A stretch of 42,273 nt of DNA from a virus (Duplodnaviria; Caudoviricetes), in the IMG/VR virus record IMGVR_UViG_3300025654_000018, positions 1 through 42,273 of that record, one strand, 5' to 3'. The notes beneath the pieces were generated by a model. That model had not been told where the DNA came from. It did not search any database and was given only the letters and a program-made list of their open reading frames with translations. The translations under genes were made by a program, and so were the position numbers. Of the stretch, positions 1 through 42,273 are shown in pieces (positions within the stretch are counted from its first letter, which is position 1; each line of letters begins with the position of its first letter).

Positions 1-50
1 AGTCATCTATAGTCATCTATAGTCATCTATAGTCATCTATAGTCATCTAT
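1..50 (+). repeat. Tandem 10-bp repeat (AGTCATCTAT)x5
   Basis: Five perfect copies read directly. Confidence 0.98.
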
Positions 51-135
51 AGTGTCTCGGCCTTGGGATCATCAGTCACTCAAGGGAAGTCTGAGGGAGC
101 TGTAGTTCAACCAAGGCCTTCACTAGCCTTATAGT
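10..135 (+). repeat. Left copy of 126-bp terminal direct repeat (true DTR or assembly overlap)
   Basis: Identical to 42148-42273; contains inverted repeat GGCCTTGG (59-66)/CCAAGGCC (111-118). Confidence 0.9.
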
Positions 136-180
136 CTGGCTTGTGGTCTCTATCGTCGGTGTTCTTGTGTCTTTCTGTCT

Positions 181-200
181 TAAAGGGTGACACAAGTATT
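181..200 (-). promoter_or_regulatory. Putative phage RNA polymerase promoter, leftward (late)
   Basis: Reverse complement AATACTTGTGTCACCCTTTA matches 6363-6382 (AATACTTATGTCACCCTTCA) at 18/20; AATAC...TCAC layout recalls the T7 promoter. Confidence 0.65.
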
Positions 201-228
201 CCTTCAGTAATTAATTGCCATATATGCA

Positions 229-257
229 TTGACGGGGGACGTATCTTTTGATATTCC
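229..257 (+). promoter_or_regulatory. Host sigma70-type early promoter
   Basis: TTGACG (229-234), 17-nt spacer, extended -10 TGn, TATTCC (252-257); lies upstream of the tRNA fragment and early genes. Confidence 0.65.
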
Positions 258-295
258 TTGGGTACACTGAAGGCATTTGCCCGACGACTAAAGAT

Positions 296-338
296 GGGCG
301 ACAGGCCGCAAGGTGTGGCAGGGGACTGTAACTCCCTC
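296..338 (+). other. 5' half of tRNA-Tyr(GUA); probable attP core
   Basis: GGGCGAC acceptor 5' strand; D-arm GCCG/TGGC with GG in the loop; anticodon arm GGGGA-CTGTAAC-TCCCT; no T-arm or 3' acceptor strand follows. Confidence 0.75.
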
Positions 339-435
339 CACCAAAGCGGATCAGATCGCAAGACCAGAGCCAACAACAGGCCGAGGGATTAGTCAGACAG
401 CAAGTGACCTTCTTAACCAAAGAAGGAACTAAAGA

Positions 436-699
436 ATGACAAATGAAACTAAATTCTCGCTAACATCCTCTTACATGAGTGACATACAGATACAGAACAT
501 GGCAGAGGTTGCTATTGTATCTTATGAGTTCACCGCAAGCTGGGCGGTTGCTTATACAGCCGCTTTAGAATTTGCGGCTGACGAATGGCACACAAAAGCA
601 ACCCCATCACAAGTAATGGCGGCTGTTAGCCTTGCCAAGACTGGCTGGGAAGGCATCCGCTCTAGTGTAAAGACCTCTTTAATGGGGGCGAACCAATGA
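436..699 (+). CDS. Early hypothetical protein
   Basis: 87 aa; strong RBS AAGAAGGAAC; first gene of an ATGA-coupled operon. Confidence 0.8.
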   Translation: MTNETKFSLTSSYMSDIQIQNMAEVAIVSYEFTASWAVAYTAALEFAADEWHTKATPSQVMAAVSLAKTGWEGIRSSVKTSLMGANQ

Positions 700-1082
700 G
701 CACTAGCGAAATCAAAAGCAACATCATCAGAGACCTACAGGGCATAGATCAGGCCGTTGATAGCCATGTACTTGTAATGGCTGGGGACAACCACACAATC
801 AGAATGTTCTCTTGCTGGCTCGATGGGTCTTACTTAGGTGAAGACCACTACAGACAGAACCTAAAGCGAATAGGTGAGTGTTTAGACAGCCGCAAGAAAC
901 TACGCTCATTCGTTATCGAACAGTTTACTAAGTACATTGCACACGATGCACAGTGTTCATATGGATATGCTCAGAAAGTTATCGTTGATTATTTAGGAAC
1001 TGAACTACTCCACAACCTTAACTCTGAATTGATTGACTATGTTACAGAGTTTTATGATGCACATGTGGGAGAAGTAGCATGA
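696..1082 (+). CDS. Early hypothetical protein
   Basis: 128 aa; ATGA overlap with both neighbours. Confidence 0.8.
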   Translation: MSTSEIKSNIIRDLQGIDQAVDSHVLVMAGDNHTIRMFSCWLDGSYLGEDHYRQNLKRIGECLDSRKKLRSFVIEQFTKYIAHDAQCSYGYAQKVIVDYLGTELLHNLNSELIDYVTEFYDAHVGEVA

Positions 1083-1396
1083 GCAACCCAACACAGCTTA
1101 CAGCAAACCAAACAGCCGCAATGATAACACTTGTCAAAGCTGGCATGAGCAACACTGGTGCTAAGTGTATCAACGACATGATGGACGACCCAATGCCAGT
1201 AGTACAAGCAAGTGATCTTGTAGAAGCTGGCTGGTCACAGAAGCAAGCCGAAGGTACATTTGGTTCACTTGTTGCCAGTGGTCATATCTTCCATGACGAA
1301 GGCGGTAATGCCGCCAATGATCTTTATATTCTCGAAGGTGAAGAGGAAGAGTTTGACAACCTTCGTGAGTTCTTTGTTGAAGAGGTGACACCATGA
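1079..1396 (+). CDS. Acidic early hypothetical protein
   Basis: 105 aa; about 18 D/E versus 4 K/R; ATGA-coupled. Confidence 0.8.
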   Translation: MSNPTQLTANQTAAMITLVKAGMSNTGAKCINDMMDDPMPVVQASDLVEAGWSQKQAEGTFGSLVASGHIFHDEGGNAANDLYILEGEEEEFDNLREFFVEEVTP

Positions 1397-1506
1397 GACA
1401 TCTAATCAACCGCATGTTAACTCCAGACGCCCTAGCATCATTCGCTTTGTTGTCTGGCATCATCCTCACAGTTCTAGCAGTCATATACGGCTACGGCAGT
1501 TACTGA
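1393..1506 (+). CDS. Small single-pass membrane protein (37 aa; not in ORF track)
   Basis: MRHLINRMLTPDALASFALLSGIILTVLAVIYGYGSY; GAGGTG RBS; ATGA overlap. Confidence 0.7.
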   Translation: MRHLINRMLTPDALASFALLSGIILTVLAVIYGYGSY

Positions 1507-1552
1507 GCCTACTTGTGTCGCCATGCTTCGGCGTGGCGCATCAAGTGGACTT
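1506..1552 (+). promoter_or_regulatory. Long intergenic hairpin, RNase III processing site-like
   Basis: ACTTG..CGCCATGC-TTCG-GCGTGGCG..CAAGT (cUUCGg tetraloop); no U-tract; directly before an RBS. Confidence 0.6.
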
Positions 1553-1581
1553 AGCCACTGAACAACTGAAGGAACAGAAGA

Positions 1582-1872
1582 ATGGCAAAATATGTAGTAA
1601 TAGCAAACCTAACAATTGCTGATCAAACAAAATTGGGCTTTGAATTTAAGTCTAAAATTGTGTCTAATTATTGGAACCCATCGACAAAAGATAATCCTAA
1701 TAAACCTCTAATTCCGCTTTATGGTAATGAGCCAAAATTGTTTGACAACATTACTTCTGCTGACGCATTCGCAGAAAGATTGCGTAGGTATAGATTTGAT
1801 GGTCAGCAAATTACAGTGGCTTGGTTTGAAGCTGTTGAATACACTGTTTCATTTGAAGAGGTGGCGGCATGA
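1582..1872 (+). CDS. Early hypothetical protein (AT-rich)
   Basis: 96 aa; RBS GAAGGAAC. Confidence 0.75.
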   Translation: MAKYVVIANLTIADQTKLGFEFKSKIVSNYWNPSTKDNPNKPLIPLYGNEPKLFDNITSADAFAERLRRYRFDGQQITVAWFEAVEYTVSFEEVAA

Positions 1873-2207
1873 GACTTTACACAAGCCCCAAGGGCGAATG
1901 GTCAGGAACACAGGCAGACGCAAAGAAGCTAGGGGCATTCGTTGAGGCTGATGTTCCCACATCTAAGGCTGATCTGCTGGCTTTCTTAAATGACCACAGC
2001 GTCATGATTAATAAGCTAAAGGAGCTAGGCTACGAAGCACCACAGCCAACCACAGCACCAGTCCAACCGAAGGAACTCAAAGGCGGTTCTTGGGACGAGT
2101 ACAACGCCATTCGCAACCATTTGGAAACGTGCGATGCCAAAGCATTAAACACGGCTCTCACCATCATCACTGGACGCCTTGGCGACCTACTTGAGAAGGC
2201 CAGCTGA
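1869..2207 (+). CDS. Early hypothetical protein
   Basis: 112 aa; GAGGTG RBS; ATGA overlap. Confidence 0.8.
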   Translation: MRLYTSPKGEWSGTQADAKKLGAFVEADVPTSKADLLAFLNDHSVMINKLKELGYEAPQPTTAPVQPKELKGGSWDEYNAIRNHLETCDAKALNTALTIITGRLGDLLEKAS

Positions 2208-2256
2208 TTGCATCAGTTAGCCCAGCGTCAAGGCGTTGGGTTTGCTCATGCAATCA
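2205..2256 (+). promoter_or_regulatory. Long intergenic hairpin, RNase III processing site-like
   Basis: TGATTGCAT (2205-13)/ATGCAATCA (2248-56) outer stem, internal loop, CCCAGCG/CGTTGGG inner stem. Confidence 0.6.
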
Positions 2257-2298
2257 AGCATGAACTAGCGAAGCTAGAACTAAAGAAGGAACAAAAGA

Positions 2299-2514
2299 AT
2301 GATTACTAATTATACCCCACAGTCAACAATCGAAGCCATGCAAGTCGCCTTGTTCCGCAGTCTAACCGCCAGATCAATAGACAGGGCACAGGCCGCCGCT
2401 ACACTAGCACAATCAATGGCAAGCAACCTGACACAACAGGAACTAGAGCAAGCTAAGGCTGGAGCTATAGACATGGCAGTCCGTGAGCAACAAGGGAGAA
2501 AGTCCAATGGGTGA
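2299..2514 (+). CDS. Early hypothetical protein
   Basis: 71 aa; RBS AAGAAGGAAC. Confidence 0.75.
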   Translation: MITNYTPQSTIEAMQVALFRSLTARSIDRAQAAATLAQSMASNLTQQELEQAKAGAIDMAVREQQGRKSNG

Positions 2515-2702
2515 AGTAATACAAATGAATGCTGATTATGTACTAGGGATGCAGTCAGCAAGGGAAGCAGTAGCGTCAGGCGACATCTACTGTCTTGAAA
2601 GTGCGCTAATGCTTTACGAGCAAGACCCAGCGGACAGTGAGTTTCAAAGGGGACACCACAGGGCACTTATAAACCTACATCAGCAAGGGAGAAAGTCCAA
2701 TG
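2491..2702 (+). repeat. 19-bp direct repeat CAAGGGAGAAAGTCCAATG (2491-2509, 2684-2702)
   Basis: Perfect copies; each forms the RBS+ATG of consecutive genes. Confidence 0.9.
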
Positions 2703-2713
2703 ACCTTTCTTGA
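2507..2713 (+). CDS. Hypothetical protein (start re-called to ATG 2507)
   Basis: In frame with track ORF 2483..2713; AAGGGAG RBS precedes ATG 2507. Confidence 0.7.
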   Translation: MGEVIQMNADYVLGMQSAREAVASGDIYCLESALMLYEQDPADSEFQRGHHRALINLHQQGRKSNDLS

Positions 2714-3593
2714 GTTAGTCCACATGGACGCAAAGCTAATCTGGGACGGGGAAGCCCACCGAGCCCGAAGCATCACCAAAGCCGAGCGATTTTCCTCTTT
2801 CTCTGATTATGACACTAGAGCCATAAGCGACTTTAAGCCTAGCCATATACACCGCTTCTTTGACAGTCTTGCGGAGCAGGGGTTGTCCAATAATACAATA
2901 AATCACTATGGGGCTATGATAGTTAAGGTGTTCTCTCATGCAGTCTCTGAAGAGCACATTAGCCATGTACCCAAGTTCAAGTATCGCAAGGTCAAAGGCA
3001 ACAAAAGACCATTGTACTTTACAAAGTCTCAAATAGATTTAATGTCGTCCTACTTTCGAAACAGTGCTGACTTCAGAGACTTAGAGTTCTACTTGATTAT
3101 TGGCATTCACACTGGGATGCGAATAGGGGAGATCAGAAGCATAAACGAAAGCACATTAGTTATTGATGAAACTGGCGGTTACTCAGTTTATTTAGCTGAC
3201 ACTAAAAACGGCGATAGTCGTACTGTGCCTATCAATGACGAAGCCCTAAGAGCCATTAGGAAACTAGGAACTGATGTTTCAAAGAACTGGAACAGCAAGT
3301 TGTTTTATCGGGGGTGGAAGCACATGAGAAGGGCAGTGCTTAATGATGACAGCCGTTACACGTTTCATACGACTAGACATACCTGTGCAACCACGCTGGC
3401 TAACAGTGGGGCTTATAACACGGACATCATCGGAAAGTTTTTAGGACACCGAGACCTAAACACGACCCGTAAATACATCAAGACTGCACCAGAGACCTTG
3501 AGGTCTATGGCAGAACTAATGAGAGGAGAGAGAAGCAAAACTATTACACCACTACAAGCCAAGCAGACTGACCTGTTTGGACTGGAAATTTAA
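2700..3593 (+). CDS. int: Tyrosine integrase/recombinase
   Basis: HTGMRIGEI, TKNG, FHTTRHT, LGH, TRKY: full R-K-H-R-H-Y catalytic set. Confidence 0.95.
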   Translation: MTFLELVHMDAKLIWDGEAHRARSITKAERFSSFSDYDTRAISDFKPSHIHRFFDSLAEQGLSNNTINHYGAMIVKVFSHAVSEEHISHVPKFKYRKVKGNKRPLYFTKSQIDLMSSYFRNSADFRDLEFYLIIGIHTGMRIGEIRSINESTLVIDETGGYSVYLADTKNGDSRTVPINDEALRAIRKLGTDVSKNWNSKLFYRGWKHMRRAVLNDDSRYTFHTTRHTCATTLANSGAYNTDIIGKFLGHRDLNTTRKYIKTAPETLRSMAELMRGERSKTITPLQAKQTDLFGLEI

Positions 3594-3611
3594 AAGGGAA
3601 GTAAAGTAACA

Positions 3612-3788
3612 ATGACAAATAAAGTAAACAATGTGAGCATTGTAAGAAAGATTAATATGTGGTCTGAAAACACAGCCGCTCAAGAGGGAAACAGTAGCAG
3701 TAGCAATGGTTTCTTTGGAATTCGTATGTCTAGCTGGGGAAATCCACAGACTGCCCCACCTGTTAAAGTAGGGGGAGCCAACACATGA
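3612..3788 (+). CDS. Small ORF (58 aa; not in ORF track) coupled to RNAP start
   Basis: Open from ATG 3612 to TGA 3786-88, overlapping RNAP ATG (ATGA); AAGGGAAG upstream. Confidence 0.5.
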   Translation: MTNKVNNVSIVRKINMWSENTAAQEGNSSSSNGFFGIRMSSWGNPQTAPPVKVGGANT

Positions 3789-6364
3789 GCAACGATAGCA
3801 ACACACAGGCAAACCCTATCTCAGAAGCCTACAACGAGACCATGAAACAAGATGGCAAACGTAAGTTTAACGAGAAGTATCAACAGGCAGAAAACGTAAC
3901 AGAGCAAGCACCAGAATATAGCCAACTAAAGCAAGTCTTAGACTTAGTGGCTGATGGTTTATCCAAAGACATCGAGGAAGCCAGAAGAGGCAAAGGACGC
4001 CGCCCAACGTGGCTAAACGACCTTATGCACCTTGACCCTAGACAGCTGGCACTCATTGGTCTCCAGAGTTGCTACAATGCAGTCTTGAAAGACAGTACGC
4101 TCAGTAGTGTAACTCAAGAAATAGGCAGTCTTATAGATCGTGAATGTTTAGCGTTGGAGTTGCTTCATAGCGATGATGAGGAAGCCAACAGGAACAACAG
4201 ACAAATAGTAAAGATGGTGTCTGAAGCCCACACGTCAGCACATGTCAGGCTGAAGGCTCTCAGGAACATAGCGTCTAAGAATGGCACCAAGTCTATATAC
4301 TTTGGCATCGAAGAGAAAAAGGGTGATCGCAAGATGCACATGAAGCGGAAGACAGCCAACGCCGCTCCAGTCATCTCAGCAATCTTTCAGTATTGTCATG
4401 TCTTCCAAAAGGACACTCAGTACACCACTCCAAAAAACAGTATCACTCGTTTGTCTTTTACTCAGGAAGCCCAGCGCGAAATTGAGAGAAGCAAAGAGTA
4501 TCTCCAATGGTCACAACCGCTTCTAAAGCCTATACCAATGGACACACCGAACCCTTGGCAGGGCTTCCATACAGGGGCTTATAAGGACTGGAGACTAGCA
4601 GAGGTTGTCAAACTCGTTAGAGGGGCTTCCAGCAAGCAGATTGAGGCCATAGAACACAGTTTCAAGGGTGAAACTCCAGAACACTTTAGAGCACTCAATG
4701 CACTGCAAGAAACGAGGCTGTGTATCAACGAGGAAATGCTTGAAGTTGTCGAGTGGTGCTGGGAGACCAGACAGTCATTCGGTAAGTTTCCAAAGCGAGA
4801 TAAACCTGAGTTTCCGAGGCTTCCAGAGGATCACATGACAATGGATCAGGAGCTGAAGAAAGCCATTAAAGAAGACCAGCGTGAATGGCGAAACACTGAC
4901 CGCAGGGTAAAGGGTGCTGAAGCTGTCATGAAGCAAGACCTTCAGATTGCTAATGAACTTGCAGTCCATGATTACTTTACGATCCCATGGGCATGTGATT
5001 TCAGAGGCCGCTTCAACATGGTTCCGTCTTTCAACTACCACAGAGACGACCACATTAAGTCACTCTTTCAGTTTCAGAGAGGCCGTGTTGTCGATGGGCA
5101 AAACATTAGATGGCTAAAGATACACATTGCTAATTGCTCTGGCTTTGAGAAGATCGACAAAGCACCTCTTGATGGACGTGTGGCATGGTTTGACAAGAAT
5201 GAGGGTGTACTCTTGGACATGGCTAAAGACTACAAGAACAGTCTGGGTCAATGGTCAGGTGCGGATTCTCCTTTTCAAATGCTCGCGGCTATCTTTGAGT
5301 ATTCCAGATACCTTGATGAAGGTGATGATTTTGTTGGCTTTATACCAATTTCACTTGATGGGACTAATAGTGGTGTTCAGCATTACAGTCTTTTGACACG
5401 TAGTGAAGAGGGTGCTTTGGTAAACTTAGTTCCACAAGACACAATGGCTGACCTTTACCAAACTGTTGCTGACAAAGTTACACAAAGGCTTGTTGTTGAT
5501 TTAGACGACCCTAGTGCCTTTGGTAGCAATGAGATCACCAAGGCTGAACTGGCGCGTATTTGGCTAGACTTTGGTATTACCAGAGGAAATCAGAAGAGGG
5601 CTTGCATGACCTACCCATATTCATCGGTTGTCGCTGGAATGACTGGTCAATACATGGAAGACGTTATGAAGCCTTTGCAACGATCTGTGTCTTATGGTGA
5701 ACTAAAGGAACACCCGATTGCTAGGACAAATAAAGAGCGAAAGGTTGCGTCACGTTACCTTGCTGGTCACAGCTACGACAGCATTGTGGAGACCTTGCCT
5801 AAAGCGGCTGAAGCTATGAAGTGGATACAGTCGTGCACCAATGTTATCAGCAAGCAAAACAAGCTGGTCAACTGGACTTCGCCTAGTGGGTTTAGGGTCT
5901 TCCATAACTATCTAAAGAGGGACAGGGTAGAGACTAAGATATTCTTGTTTGATACAGCTGTAGGCGAGAGAACTAGGTCTAAGGTCTCCTTATCGCTAGA
6001 TACAGGTAAGGTGGATGTCAGGAAGAACACAGCATCTGTAGCGGCTAACCTCATACACTCGCTTGACGCCTCTGGCATGGCTAAAACTATAGTCAAACTG
6101 CTAGACGCTGGAGCGACTAATGACTTCTTTATGATCCACGATAGCTTTGCAATCTCTGGCGATGTAGACGACCTCTACTACGGTGTCCGTGAAGCCCACA
6201 TTGAGATGTATGATGCTGAGAACCTGTTGCTAAAGTGGCAAGAGGAACTGAGGCAACAGCTGGATCATCCGTTCGACTTTGAGAGGTCTGAAGTCAATCC
6301 AATGCCCGAAATGGGAAACCTAAACCTACAGCTAATAAGGGACAGTCAATTCTGCTTTAGTTAA
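3785..6364 (+). CDS. T7-like single-subunit DNA-directed RNA polymerase
   Basis: 859 aa; DFRGR, LDGTNSGVQHY, RxxxKRACMTYPY, NLIHSLDA, IHDSF, C-terminal FCFS. Confidence 0.97.
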   Translation: MSNDSNTQANPISEAYNETMKQDGKRKFNEKYQQAENVTEQAPEYSQLKQVLDLVADGLSKDIEEARRGKGRRPTWLNDLMHLDPRQLALIGLQSCYNAVLKDSTLSSVTQEIGSLIDRECLALELLHSDDEEANRNNRQIVKMVSEAHTSAHVRLKALRNIASKNGTKSIYFGIEEKKGDRKMHMKRKTANAAPVISAIFQYCHVFQKDTQYTTPKNSITRLSFTQEAQREIERSKEYLQWSQPLLKPIPMDTPNPWQGFHTGAYKDWRLAEVVKLVRGASSKQIEAIEHSFKGETPEHFRALNALQETRLCINEEMLEVVEWCWETRQSFGKFPKRDKPEFPRLPEDHMTMDQELKKAIKEDQREWRNTDRRVKGAEAVMKQDLQIANELAVHDYFTIPWACDFRGRFNMVPSFNYHRDDHIKSLFQFQRGRVVDGQNIRWLKIHIANCSGFEKIDKAPLDGRVAWFDKNEGVLLDMAKDYKNSLGQWSGADSPFQMLAAIFEYSRYLDEGDDFVGFIPISLDGTNSGVQHYSLLTRSEEGALVNLVPQDTMADLYQTVADKVTQRLVVDLDDPSAFGSNEITKAELARIWLDFGITRGNQKRACMTYPYSSVVAGMTGQYMEDVMKPLQRSVSYGELKEHPIARTNKERKVASRYLAGHSYDSIVETLPKAAEAMKWIQSCTNVISKQNKLVNWTSPSGFRVFHNYLKRDRVETKIFLFDTAVGERTRSKVSLSLDTGKVDVRKNTASVAANLIHSLDASGMAKTIVKLLDAGATNDFFMIHDSFAISGDVDDLYYGVREAHIEMYDAENLLLKWQEELRQQLDHPFDFERSEVNPMPEMGNLNLQLIRDSQFCFS

Positions 6365-6382
6365 TACTTATGTCACCCTTCA
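6363..6382 (+). promoter_or_regulatory. Putative phage RNA polymerase promoter, rightward (replication genes)
   Basis: Overlaps the RNAP stop codon, where T7-like phages place their first class II promoters; 18/20 match to the reverse complement of 181-200. Confidence 0.65.
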
Positions 6383-6478
6383 GAAGCCCCTAGAGTTACC
6401 TCCCTGTTACTAAGGACTCTAGGGACTTCTCCTCCTCCTAAACTTAAAGCCATCCATAGATTCTATGGGTGGCTTTTT
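6382..6478 (+). ncRNA. Candidate small RNA/leader with anti-SD motifs
   Basis: Hairpin 6382-6430 with ACCTCCCT in the loop; unpaired CCTCCTCCT 6431-6439; then a terminator hairpin. Confidence 0.4.
6446..6478 (+). terminator. Intrinsic terminator after RNAP (early terminator)
   Basis: AAAGCCATCCATAG-ATT-CTATGGGTGGC-TTTTT. Confidence 0.8.
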
Positions 6479-6498
6479 AACATTAGAAAGACAAAAGT

Positions 6499-7041
6499 AT
6501 GCCTAAGAAACCAAAGATAAACTTTCAGACTCCTGTAGGAGTTGCTAAGTATCCACACTTGAACAAACCAGACACAGCCTTTGACTCTGAAGGTAAATAC
6601 AAAGCAGAACTATTAGTGTCTCAAGATGAAGCCAAGCCTCTTATTAAGTTGATAGAGGATGCGGCTAAAGAAGAACATGGGTCAGCTAATTATAGAGTTC
6701 CCTATCAGACAGATGAAGAGACTGGGGAAGTAGCTTTTAAACTACAGTCTAAGTATCAACCGAAATTCTACGATACAGCTGGTCAACTAGTGCCAGAAGG
6801 TAAAGAACCAAGGATAGGCGGTGGTAGCCGATTGAGACTTAAAGGCTACCTAAATGTCTATAAGGTATCTGGTCAGGCTGGTGTGTCTATACAGCTTACG
6901 TCCTGTCAAATAGTTGAAGCAATGCAAGGCATGAATGGAGCTGGCTTTGATGCTCTTGAAGAGGGTGGGTTTACTATAGACACATCAGCAATTGATGCAC
7001 CTTTTGAAGCAATAGAAAACTCTGATAACTTTGACTTCTAA
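6499..7041 (+). CDS. ssDNA-binding protein (T7 gp2.5-like)
   Basis: TPVGVAKYPHLNKPD..GKYK; acidic tail ending in Phe; syntenic position. Confidence 0.9.
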   Translation: MPKKPKINFQTPVGVAKYPHLNKPDTAFDSEGKYKAELLVSQDEAKPLIKLIEDAAKEEHGSANYRVPYQTDEETGEVAFKLQSKYQPKFYDTAGQLVPEGKEPRIGGGSRLRLKGYLNVYKVSGQAGVSIQLTSCQIVEAMQGMNGAGFDALEEGGFTIDTSAIDAPFEAIENSDNFDF

Positions 7042-7462
7042 TCATAGATACCGAGGTATCAAAGAAGGCTACAGGTCTGGTCTTGAGGCTATAATTGCTG
7101 AAGAACTAAGGCGACTAGGTATACCATTTACCTACGAGAGCCAAAAGCTGACCTACACCATCCCTAGTCGAACCGCCAAGTACACCCCAGACTTCATTCT
7201 CCCGAAGGCTGGTGGTGTCTGGTTCTTAGAGACTAAGGGGCGATGGGTCACAGCTGATCGACAGAAACATGTGTTAATCAAACAGCAACTACCTCAGATT
7301 GATCTTAGGTTCTTATTTAGTAATGCAAATGCCAAGTTGTATAAAGGGTCTAAGACTTCTTATGCAGACTTTTGCACAAAGAATGGGTTCGCATGGGCAC
7401 ACAAGCGGATACCAGATGAGTGGATTGAAGAGTGTCATTTAGGCATGAAGCAAGCCAAATAA
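7031..7462 (+). CDS. Endonuclease I / Holliday junction resolvase (T7 gp3-like)
   Basis: YRSGLE, YTPDF, ETKG motifs. Confidence 0.95.
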   Translation: MTSNHRYRGIKEGYRSGLEAIIAEELRRLGIPFTYESQKLTYTIPSRTAKYTPDFILPKAGGVWFLETKGRWVTADRQKHVLIKQQLPQIDLRFLFSNANAKLYKGSKTSYADFCTKNGFAWAHKRIPDEWIEECHLGMKQAK

Positions 7463-7469
7463 AGAGAGC

Positions 7470-7498
7470 AAGGGGCGGTCTTAGGATCGCCCTTTTTT
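7470..7498 (+). terminator. Intrinsic terminator
   Basis: GGGCGGTC-TTAG-GATCGCCC-TTTTTT. Confidence 0.75.
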
Positions 7499-7519
7499 AT
7501 TTTAAGGGAAGCAAGAAAC

Positions 7520-7729
7520 ATGAGAAACTTTGTAGGCATACGATATGCACAGACACAGCTAATGAGAATACTAATGAGTGACAAATACAAAAAAGGCACT
7601 CTGACAGATAAGAAACAAGAGAAACTTGATGCACTGATCGAGTTTTGTGGTGCTTATGAGAAGCACAGGAACATCCAAGGACTGAACGATCACGATTTTA
7701 CACATTATTGGAATGAAAGAGATGGTTGA
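7520..7729 (+). CDS. Hypothetical protein
   Basis: 69 aa; AAGGGAAG RBS. Confidence 0.65.
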   Translation: MRNFVGIRYAQTQLMRILMSDKYKKGTLTDKKQEKLDALIEFCGAYEKHRNIQGLNDHDFTHYWNERDG

Positions 7730-9308
7730 ACAAGAAGAGAGCACCTTTGTGTCTCACGAAGCATGTGACGCCTGTGGGTCATCAGACGCCAACAGCCTCT
7801 ACAGCGATGGTCACATGTTCTGCTTCAGCTGTCTAAAGCACACCCCAGCTGACGGAGAGTATACGCCCAGCGCACAGCCAACTAAGACAGACAGTAGCCT
7901 ACTATCAGGCGACTTCATGGAACTAAGGTCACGCAAGTTGACTGAAGCCACGTGTCGTAAGTTTGGTTACTTTGTAACTAAAGACAGCAAAGGCGATCCA
8001 ATACAGGTGGCTAACTACAAGGATGCCAAGGGTAAGACTACAGGTCAGAAGATCAGAACAAGAGACAAGCAGTTTCCTACCATTGGTAAGATTAATGGTC
8101 TCTTTGGTATGCATCTGTGGTCAGCTGGAAAGAAACTGGTGGTCACAGAGGGCGAACTGGATTGCATGAGTGTGTCACAGGTACAACAGCATAGGTTTGC
8201 TACTGTTTCCGTAAGGAACGGCAGTTCTGGGGCTAAGAAGAACCTGTTGGAAAACATAGATTACCTCAACAACTTTAAAGAGATAATCTTAATGTTTGAT
8301 CAAGATGAAGCTGGACGTAAGGCCGCCATTGAGTGTGCTGAAGTCTTGCCCATAGGCAAAGTTAAGATAGCTGTCTTGCCACATAAAGACGCCAATGAAT
8401 GTCTAGTGAAAGGTGAGGCTGGTGCAATCATTAATGCCATACACCAAGCCGCTGACTATAGACCTGATGGCATAGTCCAGATGTCTGATATGAGAGAGAC
8501 TGTAGCAACTCCTGATGCTGAAAGCCCATTCAAGTATCCTTACCCAAGGTTGAACTTTATGACTAAAGGCATGAGAGGCATTACAACTCTTGTCAGTGGC
8601 TCTGGGTGTGGGAAGTCAACTTTAGTGCGCGAAATAGCATATCATCTGCATATGACAGGCTCAACTGTAGGCATGTTGATGTTGGAGGAAAACACCAAGC
8701 GAACTTCGCAGGGGTTAGTAGGACTCCACATAAACAAGAACATTGTCATTGATCCAGAAGCCGCGACAGTAGATGAGGTAAAAGCTGGTTTTGATGACTT
8801 GGTGTCTAAGGGCGAAATCTACCTCTTCGACCATGTGGGTACGTTTGACTTAGATATAATCTGTTCTCGCATAAGGTACATGAAGCATGGACTTGGCTGT
8901 GATGTCGTGTTTTTAGATCACATTTCAATATTGATCAGTTCGTATTCTGGAGCCTCAGACAACGAGAGGGTTTTGATAGACCACATAATGCACACGTTAA
9001 CTACTTTATGTGTCGAATTGGATTTAGCTCTAGTTCTTGTGTCCCACCTAAAGAGGCCAAAGTCTGAAAGAGGTCATGAAGGTGGCGACAAAGCCCAGCT
9101 ATCACAGCTGAGAGGAAGTCACAGTCTAGCACAGCTGGCTTGGTTCTGTATCGCCTTGAATGTGGATGAGGAAGACCCCACGTCAGGCAAAAGACAACTT
9201 ACTATTCTTAAAAATAGACACACTGGTTTTCTCGGTTCAGCCGATACGCTCCAGTACAATTCCGACACAGGCAGACTTATGGCTGTAGACGATAACTTCG
9301 GCTTCTAG
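7713..9308 (+). CDS. DNA primase-helicase (T7 gp4-like)
   Basis: CDAC..CFSC zinc finger, TOPRIM EGELD/FDQD, Walker A GSGCGKST, LDHIS, LRGS. Confidence 0.96.
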   Translation: MKEMVEQEESTFVSHEACDACGSSDANSLYSDGHMFCFSCLKHTPADGEYTPSAQPTKTDSSLLSGDFMELRSRKLTEATCRKFGYFVTKDSKGDPIQVANYKDAKGKTTGQKIRTRDKQFPTIGKINGLFGMHLWSAGKKLVVTEGELDCMSVSQVQQHRFATVSVRNGSSGAKKNLLENIDYLNNFKEIILMFDQDEAGRKAAIECAEVLPIGKVKIAVLPHKDANECLVKGEAGAIINAIHQAADYRPDGIVQMSDMRETVATPDAESPFKYPYPRLNFMTKGMRGITTLVSGSGCGKSTLVREIAYHLHMTGSTVGMLMLEENTKRTSQGLVGLHINKNIVIDPEAATVDEVKAGFDDLVSKGEIYLFDHVGTFDLDIICSRIRYMKHGLGCDVVFLDHISILISSYSGASDNERVLIDHIMHTLTTLCVELDLALVLVSHLKRPKSERGHEGGDKAQLSQLRGSHSLAQLAWFCIALNVDEEDPTSGKRQLTILKNRHTGFLGSADTLQYNSDTGRLMAVDDNFGF

Positions 9309-9350: not shown

Positions 9351-9644
9351 ATGCGTGGAATCTCAGTTACGTCCAGAGAGGCGTTTGCAAACACAGACTT
9401 AACCAAGAACACAAGAATGGTCTTTGATGTCATTCAGTCAGCTGGAGACAAAGGGTGCATCAGTGCACAAGTACAGCTGGCACTCAAGCACATGCCATAT
9501 GGCTCGATCACGAACCACTTCAAATGGCTAAAAGACGCTGGGCTAATCACAGTCATCGGGAAGCGGCTTAGTCCATACGGGCGAAACCAACAGATATTTA
9601 AAGCAACAAGACCACTCAATGCACAAGGGGAGCTATTCAGATGA
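9351..9644 (+). CDS. Putative winged-helix DNA-binding protein
   Basis: Pattern ..YGSITNHFKWLKDAGLITVIGKR..GRNQQIFKA typical of wHTH. Confidence 0.6.
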   Translation: MRGISVTSREAFANTDLTKNTRMVFDVIQSAGDKGCISAQVQLALKHMPYGSITNHFKWLKDAGLITVIGKRLSPYGRNQQIFKATRPLNAQGELFR

Positions 9645-42002: not shown

Positions 42003-42112
42003 AGACACTATAGACATCTACCATCATCCTCATCTATGACAATCAATAGAGAGACAATCAGTCTATAGTCATCCTTAGTATCTATAGTCATCTATAGTCG
42101 TCCTAGTCTATG
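42003..42112 (+). repeat. Degenerate copies of the AGTCATCTAT/CTATAG repeat
   Basis: e.g. GTCTATAGTCATCCTTAGTATCTATAGTCATCTATAGTCGTCCTAGTCTAT. Confidence 0.7.
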
Positions 42113-42147
42113 GTTTCTTTATTGTTTGTCAGGTAGAGGATGCTCCT

Positions 42148-42273
42148 TAGTCATCTATAGTCATCTATAGTCATCTATAGTCATCTATAGTGTCTCGGCC
42201 TTGGGATCATCAGTCACTCAAGGGAAGTCTGAGGGAGCTGTAGTTCAACCAAGGCCTTCACTAGCCTTATAGT
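42148..42273 (+). repeat. Right copy of 126-bp terminal direct repeat, including (AGTCATCTAT)x4
   Basis: Identical to 10-135. Confidence 0.9.

Follow-up and report, generated by a model that had tools for sequence, protein, structure and literature searches.

The window, that is, the whole stretch of 42,273 nt that was analysed, is a complete phage genome, recovered as a circular assembly with a 126-nt overlap between its ends; the join of these ends lies inside the identical contigs L010 and L037. The plus strand encodes a tyrosine integrase (Int), a T7-type RNA polymerase (RNAP), T7-like replication genes and small early genes, and the minus strand a head-tail module that is not of the T7 type. 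Thus, with respect to the hallmarks of the Autographiviridae, the single-subunit RNAP is present and a T7-type structural module on the same strand is absent. Identity of the RNAP to cultured phages reaches 27–30% at best and that of the head protein 34–38%, with no phage named as a member of the T7 group among the 15 head protein matches listed. The integrase matches PF00589 (E 2.6e-20), and its closest cultured relatives are the HTVC019P-type pelagiphages (29–33% identity). The relevant features are the following:

229–234, plus strand: TTGACG, –35 hexamer of the putative early promoter
233–239, plus strand: GGGA motif beside the –35 element, similar to the att core in its left half, which may be an accessory site for the integrase or a regulator
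249–257, plus strand: extended –10 TG (249–250) and –10 hexamer TATTCC (252–257), with a 17-nt spacer
264–295, plus strand: predicted 5' leader, its start inferred from the position of the –10 element
296–338, plus strand: positions 1–43 of the host tRNA-Tyr(GUA), with the acceptor 5' strand (296–302), D-arm (305–319) and anticodon arm (321–337)
321–336, plus strand: att core drawn from identity limits, the anticodon stem-loop, with a likely 7-nt overlap at the loop (326–332)
338–343, plus strand: CCACCA, with no role assigned and not conserved
346–359, plus strand: conserved GCGG-N6-TCGC hairpin or inverted motif, downstream arm
408–426, plus strand: hairpin over the Shine-Dalgarno sequence of the first early gene; in subgroup C2 the letters differ and the hairpin is kept
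2700–3593, plus strand: tyrosine integrase of 297 aa, with intact R-K-H-R-H-Y motifs and with core-binding and catalytic domains only
3785–6364, plus strand: T7-type single-subunit RNAP (phrog_414, E 2.6e-164)
6448–6479, plus strand: strong intrinsic-terminator-like hairpin, the first one downstream of att and the predicted end of the early unit
9351–9644, plus strand: probable winged-helix protein of 97 aa in the replication region

The 43 nt at 296–338 agree letter for letter with the first 43 nt of tRNA-Tyr(GUA) in Rhodobacteraceae, in agreement with the half tRNA described in a first-pass annotation of this DNA. The 42-mer 296–337 is matched exactly in at least 120 genome loci (about 1200 such stretches are estimated); among the 120 listed, 116 continue as a full tRNA-Tyr and four are cut by contig ends. 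Every taxon named below class in these matches belongs to the Rhodobacterales, the rest being unclassified alphaproteobacterial or Pseudomonadota MAGs. The host family of the phage lineage is assigned to the Rhodobacteraceae, as had been proposed, and the host of one subgroup to Planktomarina. In five of five host genomes the tRNA-Tyr piece is the sole strong match of window positions 1–8000, and the anticodon arm is present once in each of five other genomes tested. ARAGORN and Rfam call no tRNA in the window, as expected for only half a gene, and BLAST of positions 200–440 against cultured phages returns weak matches to Vibrio phage tRNA-Tyr and chance matches only. The CCACCA noted behind the piece was rejected as a CCA end: of 62 distinct contexts, 8 have it after the stem, and its presence is incidental.

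In the Planktomarina records L071 and L126 an rlmB-like gene lies about 1.2 kb upstream of the tRNA and is not adjacent to it. Four host loci (L058, L084, L117 and L168) carry 3' duplicates of tRNA-Tyr that begin at positions 37–38, less than 350 nt downstream, and these were left behind by other elements that use this anticodon-loop site as well. Full, host-identical tRNA-Tyr genes were also seen in unrelated viral contigs (L002, L011, L018, L022, L027, L029, L035 and L044), one such contig measuring 155 kb and some adjoining another tRNA-like end. A 58.9-kb viral record (L033, G407) has a host-type promoter and an intact tRNA-Tyr at one end, and is probably a conventional 3'-type provirus at the tRNA-Tyr gene.

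Upstream of the piece, the site at 229–257 is predicted to be the main early promoter of the phage. It is built like the promoter of the host tRNA-Tyr gene, where TTGAC, 17 nt and a TA-led hexamer were found in 118 of 119 loci, none of them with a T at –7; the promoter proposed earlier at this place is thus matched by a site of the host type. TTGACG is the hexamer of most host tRNA-Tyr promoters, and TATTCC itself serves as –10 element in 3 of 116 scored host loci. The position of the –35 element is fixed among the phages, since in 52 of the 59 distinct contexts the best TTG-led hexamer lies 64–69 nt upstream of the first tRNA nucleotide, and in one subgroup TTGACA takes its place. The whole window contains two TTGAC[AG]-N16–18-TA sites, that at 229 being one. 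An E. coli-type promoter scan of the window, which demands a T at –7, does not list the site. Alphaproteobacterial promoters often do without this base, and since the host tRNA-Tyr promoters never have it, the miss carries no weight. The promoter is presumably active.

Where the tRNA lacks its 3' half, the acceptor strand is free to pair with the leader (264–295), through four pairs that show no two-sided change. RNA folding of 263–445 gave z = –2.9; only 2 of the 39 pairs of the consensus structure show two-sided change, and the claim of a structured RNA was dropped on this count. The pairs of the 346–359 motif are invariant in 21 of 21 rows and therefore lack covariation support. The motif [CT][AG][AG]GGGA occurs in 17 plus-strand copies, five of them at 81, 92, 233, 319 and 382, and the copy at the –35 element is kept in groups A, C and D of the lineage and not in B. 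These repeats, a motif noticed post hoc and not universal, may be additional binding places for Int, including one downstream of the core.

Between position 338 and the end of the RNAP gene no intrinsic terminator was found apart from a weak site at 5391. Since no strong terminator intervenes, a single transcript made by the host RNAP from 229–257 probably covers the early genes, int and the RNAP gene. Two long hairpins within it (1505–1553 and 2205–2256) look like RNase III sites. The two ORFs just before int (2299–2514 and 2507–2713) could be assigned to no family, ESM Atlas included; a MarR-like gene directly upstream of int is absent from the window, and the sister group has no space for one. 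A helix-turn-helix-like ORF (1079–1396) was rejected as a general repressor, being found in 2 of 38 intervals between the att site and int and having no notable PDB match, and these intervals hold no conserved regulator gene. The 9351–9644 protein has weak, below-cutoff matches to Rpc34, HTH_5, RPA_C and MarR_2. It is conserved, is encoded between primase and MazG, beyond the early terminator, and is a possible regulator. The earlier remark that the genome has no recognisable CI repressor is weakened by this gene.

The half tRNA is a constant feature of the lineage. Among 86 viral contigs, 76 contain the 5' part only (two of these end too early to be certain), nine contain a whole tRNA-Tyr in unrelated DNA and one (L014) is a junction. 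Positions 1–41 of the tRNA are identical in all viral loci, even where the search left positions 1–12 or 19–41 free; the flanks diverge while this 41-nt piece stays fixed, and the integrases go down to about 34% identity. Group A comprises the close kin of the window phage, and subgroups C and D are farther away, with the same architecture and an Int 40–55% identical. Group B is characterized by an Int about 34% identical, a one-strand genome, a tRNA fragment of 56–58 nt and a terminator-like hairpin upstream of the promoter. The distance from the half tRNA to int, noted before as about 2.4 kb, is indeed 2.4 kb in the window; it ranges from 1.1 to 4.0 kb in the close kin and from 112 to 136 nt in the sister group B. 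In a check independent of the tRNA pattern, in which 37 of 49 loci fetched by their RNAP were examined, the piece begins at position 1 in 15 of the 15 loci that reach the upstream landmark, and it was also found in two more of group A and in four of four of group B. All loci that reach the RNAP gene contain int. A second att site between int and the RNAP gene was looked for and rejected, both by comparison of the window with host genomes and in the int–RNAP intervals of the RNAP-fetched loci, which contain no tRNA-Tyr piece, the site lying 1.1–4.0 kb upstream of int.

The limits of identity locate the point of exchange. In 32 of the 65 contexts of the 5' type, identity does not go beyond tRNA position 41, a related RNAP phage of the 3' type (L233) carries the 3' half of tRNA-Tyr from position 26, and the host 3' duplicates start at 37–38. 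Together these limits place the crossover at positions 26–41, within the anticodon arm, where it had been put before; a crossover in the anticodon loop fits them, and the exact cut positions given above are predicted. The integrase of L233 nests in the same integrase clade with support of 0.95 and 0.93 (FastTree, 37 proteins, without that of HTVC109P, which did not pass the motif filter). As far as the sequence of L233 tells, one and the same core thus serves 5' complementation in some members of the clade and 3' complementation in another. L233:5800–6900 shows a promoter-like site, a leader hairpin and the tRNA-Tyr 3' half just before int.

A metagenome scan for the leader motif followed by a full tRNA returned six contigs, three of which (L171, L172 and L169, the last being equal to L014) have phage DNA upstream and so present the junction of phage promoter and intact tRNA that had been predicted. 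L168 was dropped as a junction, because it is a plain host locus in which the leader motif occurs by chance. Contig L172 follows the free phage L204 with 99.2% identity for 1878 nt, as far as tRNA position 41, takes the host letter at position 42 and then completes the tRNA. Beyond it lies a 1.9-kb insert, in which 731 nt that are 95% like the DNA behind the tRNA-Tyr of a Planktotalea MAG are followed by an IS-like transposase region; the last 123 nt match the end of the tRNA and its flank in chromosome G202 with 96% identity, and G202 shares its genus set with the Planktomarina record L126. L172, L204 and G202 supply one junction, together with an apparent attP and attB, for subgroup C2, whose integrase is about 47% identical to that of the window, so this best junction belongs to a relative and not to the window phage itself. 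The contig L014 ends 49 nt after the tRNA, with a host side that has no match in the 401 + 61 + 23 genomes searched, and L171, the weakest case, ends 5 nt after it. The junctions thus cover the side that completes the tRNA (three contigs); on the attL side, none of the 86 viral contigs has host DNA upstream of the half tRNA. Contigs of DNA and RNA runs are short, break at the shared stretch and yielded no junction and no strand or start-site information, and the junction contigs could be assembly chimeras formed through the shared 41–43 nt.

An exact end fragment of a host tRNA in a non-coding region and a cognate tyrosine integrase with intact catalytic residues are thus found in the window, and in contigs of relatives an intact tRNA is rebuilt from the 5' part brought by the element. 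Window positions 296–338 are likely the attP of the known 5'-fragment class. We consider it likely that this is the attP of a roseobacter phage encoding both RNAP and integrase, at which integration would exchange promoters at tRNA-Tyr, most likely re-wiring the lytic unit and not silencing it. The predicted integrase reaction would recombine the anticodon loop (326–332) with the host tRNA-Tyr gene. The rebuilt, intact tRNA, presumably functional, would then be transcribed from the phage early promoter, and the early genes, int and the RNAP gene would come to lie behind the host tRNA-Tyr promoter. This exchange would follow from the geometry of the site, and one side of it is visible in relatives. 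Its most likely outcome is the swap of two similarly built sigma70-type promoters, by which the lytic unit would be re-wired. That the front half is exact and stands behind a phage promoter is most likely because the host has a single tRNA-Tyr gene and an insertion of the 5' type has to bring both. By analogy with the T7-like cyanophages, integration is probably infrequent or transient, and the integrated state itself presumably short-lived.

The first-pass annotation had gone further and proposed integration itself as the lysogeny switch, the lytic unit losing its phage promoter with no repressor required. The site does lie as the proposal requires, downstream of the sole evident early promoter and ahead of every early gene; the stretch from att to int holds no conserved regulator (the 112–136 nt of the sister group and the sporadic ORF 1079–1396 being cases in point), and the MarR gene that pelagiphages have before int is missing here. 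Nevertheless, we regard this proposal as improbable. The incoming host promoter, conserved in 118 of 119 loci, is well formed, so the swap would not be an off switch in growing cells, where tRNA promoters are strong, and read-through to the RNAP gene is unhindered by any strong terminator. A repressor acting at the phage promoter would silence an essential tRNA after integration, and the lytic unit could be kept stably off only by a block beyond the core. Searches by RNAP or leader pattern found no prophage of this lineage in 401 family genomes (one per species, many incomplete), nor did a search of the 23 genomes of the Planktomarina set; the RNAP search of the 401 gave three distant matches (27–32%), and the one that was extended, in G025, has no integrase match and no tRNA in 16 kb. 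According to the accessible text of PMC8776855, cyanophages with a 5'-half attP and no repressor integrate, yet gave no lysogens. A different use of the same geometry is growth-state coupling, in which a stringently controlled host tRNA promoter would drive the integrated lytic unit, so that the phage would be quiet in starvation and restart on nutrient upshift while its own promoter keeps the tRNA on. In E. coli, GC-rich discriminators mark stringently controlled promoters, and the G+C content of the 6 nt after the –10 element is 82% in 116 host promoters vs 57% in the phage promoters, the latter value from the 17 of 53 contexts that could be scored. This contrast is confounded, however, because the host genomes are mostly richer in G+C than the phage. 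The coupling agrees with the 'safety net' idea in the accessible part of PMC8776855, and we consider it unlikely but worth stating. The same holds for its fullest form, a doubtful one, a repressor-free dormancy device with the early-int-RNAP unit on a growth-rate-controlled host promoter and the only tRNA-Tyr of the host on that of the phage. If true, the phage would sleep in starved cells and wake on upshift, its deletion would have to leave its promoter behind, as in contigs L167 and L170, and marine T7-like phages with integrases but without classical lysogens would be explained.

Two further readings were weighed. The promoter and leader may have been copied from a natural host of the L167/L170 type, near-identical promoters then being swapped with no regulatory effect. 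These two contigs show a phage-like promoter and leader (78% over 162 nt, including the shared tRNA part), a full tRNA-Tyr and AT-rich non-phage DNA, and the DNA behind their tRNA resembles the host side of L014. But the rlmB-like gene that adjoins the promoter in 79 of 84 bacterial-type loci is missing from them, and a giant ORF with RTX repeats stands in its place, as expected for an island or prophage scar; the leader motif occurs in 0 of 401 family genomes, and the leaders of other subgroups are quite different. A host origin of the promoter is improbable, and L167/L170 look more like a phage promoter retained after decay or replacement of the element, possibly a prophage scar or a 5'-type island. 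A search of the genomes for the host organism of L167 returned no match. At this locus (L167:5900–6413, and in L170) the giant ORF is divergent and has at least 1881 aa, with RTX calcium-binding repeats and PPC domains. Finally, the half tRNA could be an expressed RNA element, a decoy for defences that cut tRNA-Tyr or a leader structure, the junction contigs being chimeric. Defences directed at tRNA-Tyr exist, the half tRNA lies in the predicted early 5' leader with conserved hairpins around it, and the z value for 263–445 points the same way. Against this stand the presence of int in every locus that reaches the RNAP gene, the end of identity at the anticodon stem, as att cores do, the nested relative with the 3' half at the same core, the 2 kb of non-phage DNA in L172 and the scarcity of two-sided change. 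Such an element in place of an attP is very improbable, and a second role besides that of attP is possible. The reading as an attP with promoter exchange is thus retained.

The comparison with known systems that follows refers to the accessible text of the papers cited. Islands with 5' tRNA fragments were reportedly described by Zhao and Williams in 2002. In Islander, 159 of 3919 islands carry such a fragment (PMC4383910), and they resemble the window in having a tyrosine integrase, an anticodon-centred site and an element that gives the 5' end; unlike the window phage, the class is general and not tied to a lytic early operon, and that text makes no statement on promoters. The reversed layout noted at first is thus real, but belongs to a known minority class. 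A further case is that of the T7-like cyanophages (PMC8776855, Shitrit et al.): their attP motifs all match the first half of tRNA-Leu, and S-TIP37 and P-SSP7 are RNAP phages with a tyrosine integrase, no known repressor and an attP of about 39 bp equal to the first half of the host tRNA. S-TIP37 integrates rarely and without lysogeny, and its attP has the orientation of its RNAP gene, the same as in the window. In these cyanophages the attP lies directly downstream of int and before the RNAP gene, so that int stays with the phage promoters, whereas in the window phage it precedes int and every early gene. In the pelagiphages HTVC021P, 022P, 109P and 120P the host tRNA is restored with a 5' part that the phage brings, and PCR has shown the junctions (10.1101/410191, Zhao et al.); in several pelagiphages the attP lies between int and the RNAP gene (10.1101/410191; PMC12361551). 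They differ from the window phage in their target (tRNA-Cys, -Leu or -Arg) and in the MarR gene before int; the word 'promoter' is absent from the text of 10.1101/410191. The layout of a 5' part with attP between int and the RNAP gene is visible in four records. Roseophages ARP-A, -B and -C (PMC11092137) share roseobacter hosts, RNAP, tyrosine integrase and class II RNR with the window phage, but have a T7-like structural module, the head-tail module of the window being of another kind and encoded on the opposite strand. The main text of that paper contains no occurrence of attP and no att site for Autographiviridae roseophages, and other roseophage groups use tRNA-Met and tRNA-Thr sites (PMC6918029, PMC11288001). 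LUZ100 and the Pasto-type temperate T7-like phages (PMC10134795) likewise have the integrase beside the RNAP, but there a MarR repressor is the proposed switch, and the window has no MarR gene beside int.

A promoter swap ahead of the RNAP gene is, judging from these texts, already implicit in S-TIP37 and HTVC109P, and the 5'-half layout itself is known. What is new is the position of the att site upstream of the whole early-int-RNAP unit, in a genome that lacks a MarR gene next to int, and the undescribed roseobacter phage lineage that has it; titles and abstract openings outside subscription journals and supplements describe no att site of this group and no promoter swap at a tRNA att site. 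A widespread, uncultured lineage of marine RNAP phages thereby gains a host family and a likely integration site, and the question why T7-like marine phages integrate gains its cleanest layout so far. With the early promoter on one side of the site and all early genes on the other, two promoter fusions could measure what the swap does. The compact integrase of 297 aa, with a site conserved across the estimated 1200 genome stretches, is a possible tool for roseobacter genetics.

The DNA around this unit shows some further traits. Window positions 436–2713 form a hypervariable cassette of early genes (1.1–4.0 kb across relatives) with repeated ribosome-binding modules at 415, 1561 and 2278, and some contigs show joins that skip between these modules. 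The small ORF between int and the RNAP gene (3612–3788) is very variable in length among relatives and retains a short C-terminal motif, read by eye as SSW-x-NP-x-x-APP, and a similar motif also precedes the RNAP gene in group B. Arrays of a 10-nt repeat at 1–52 and 42006–42195, near the att region, recall the short repeats that flank the genome ends of T7.
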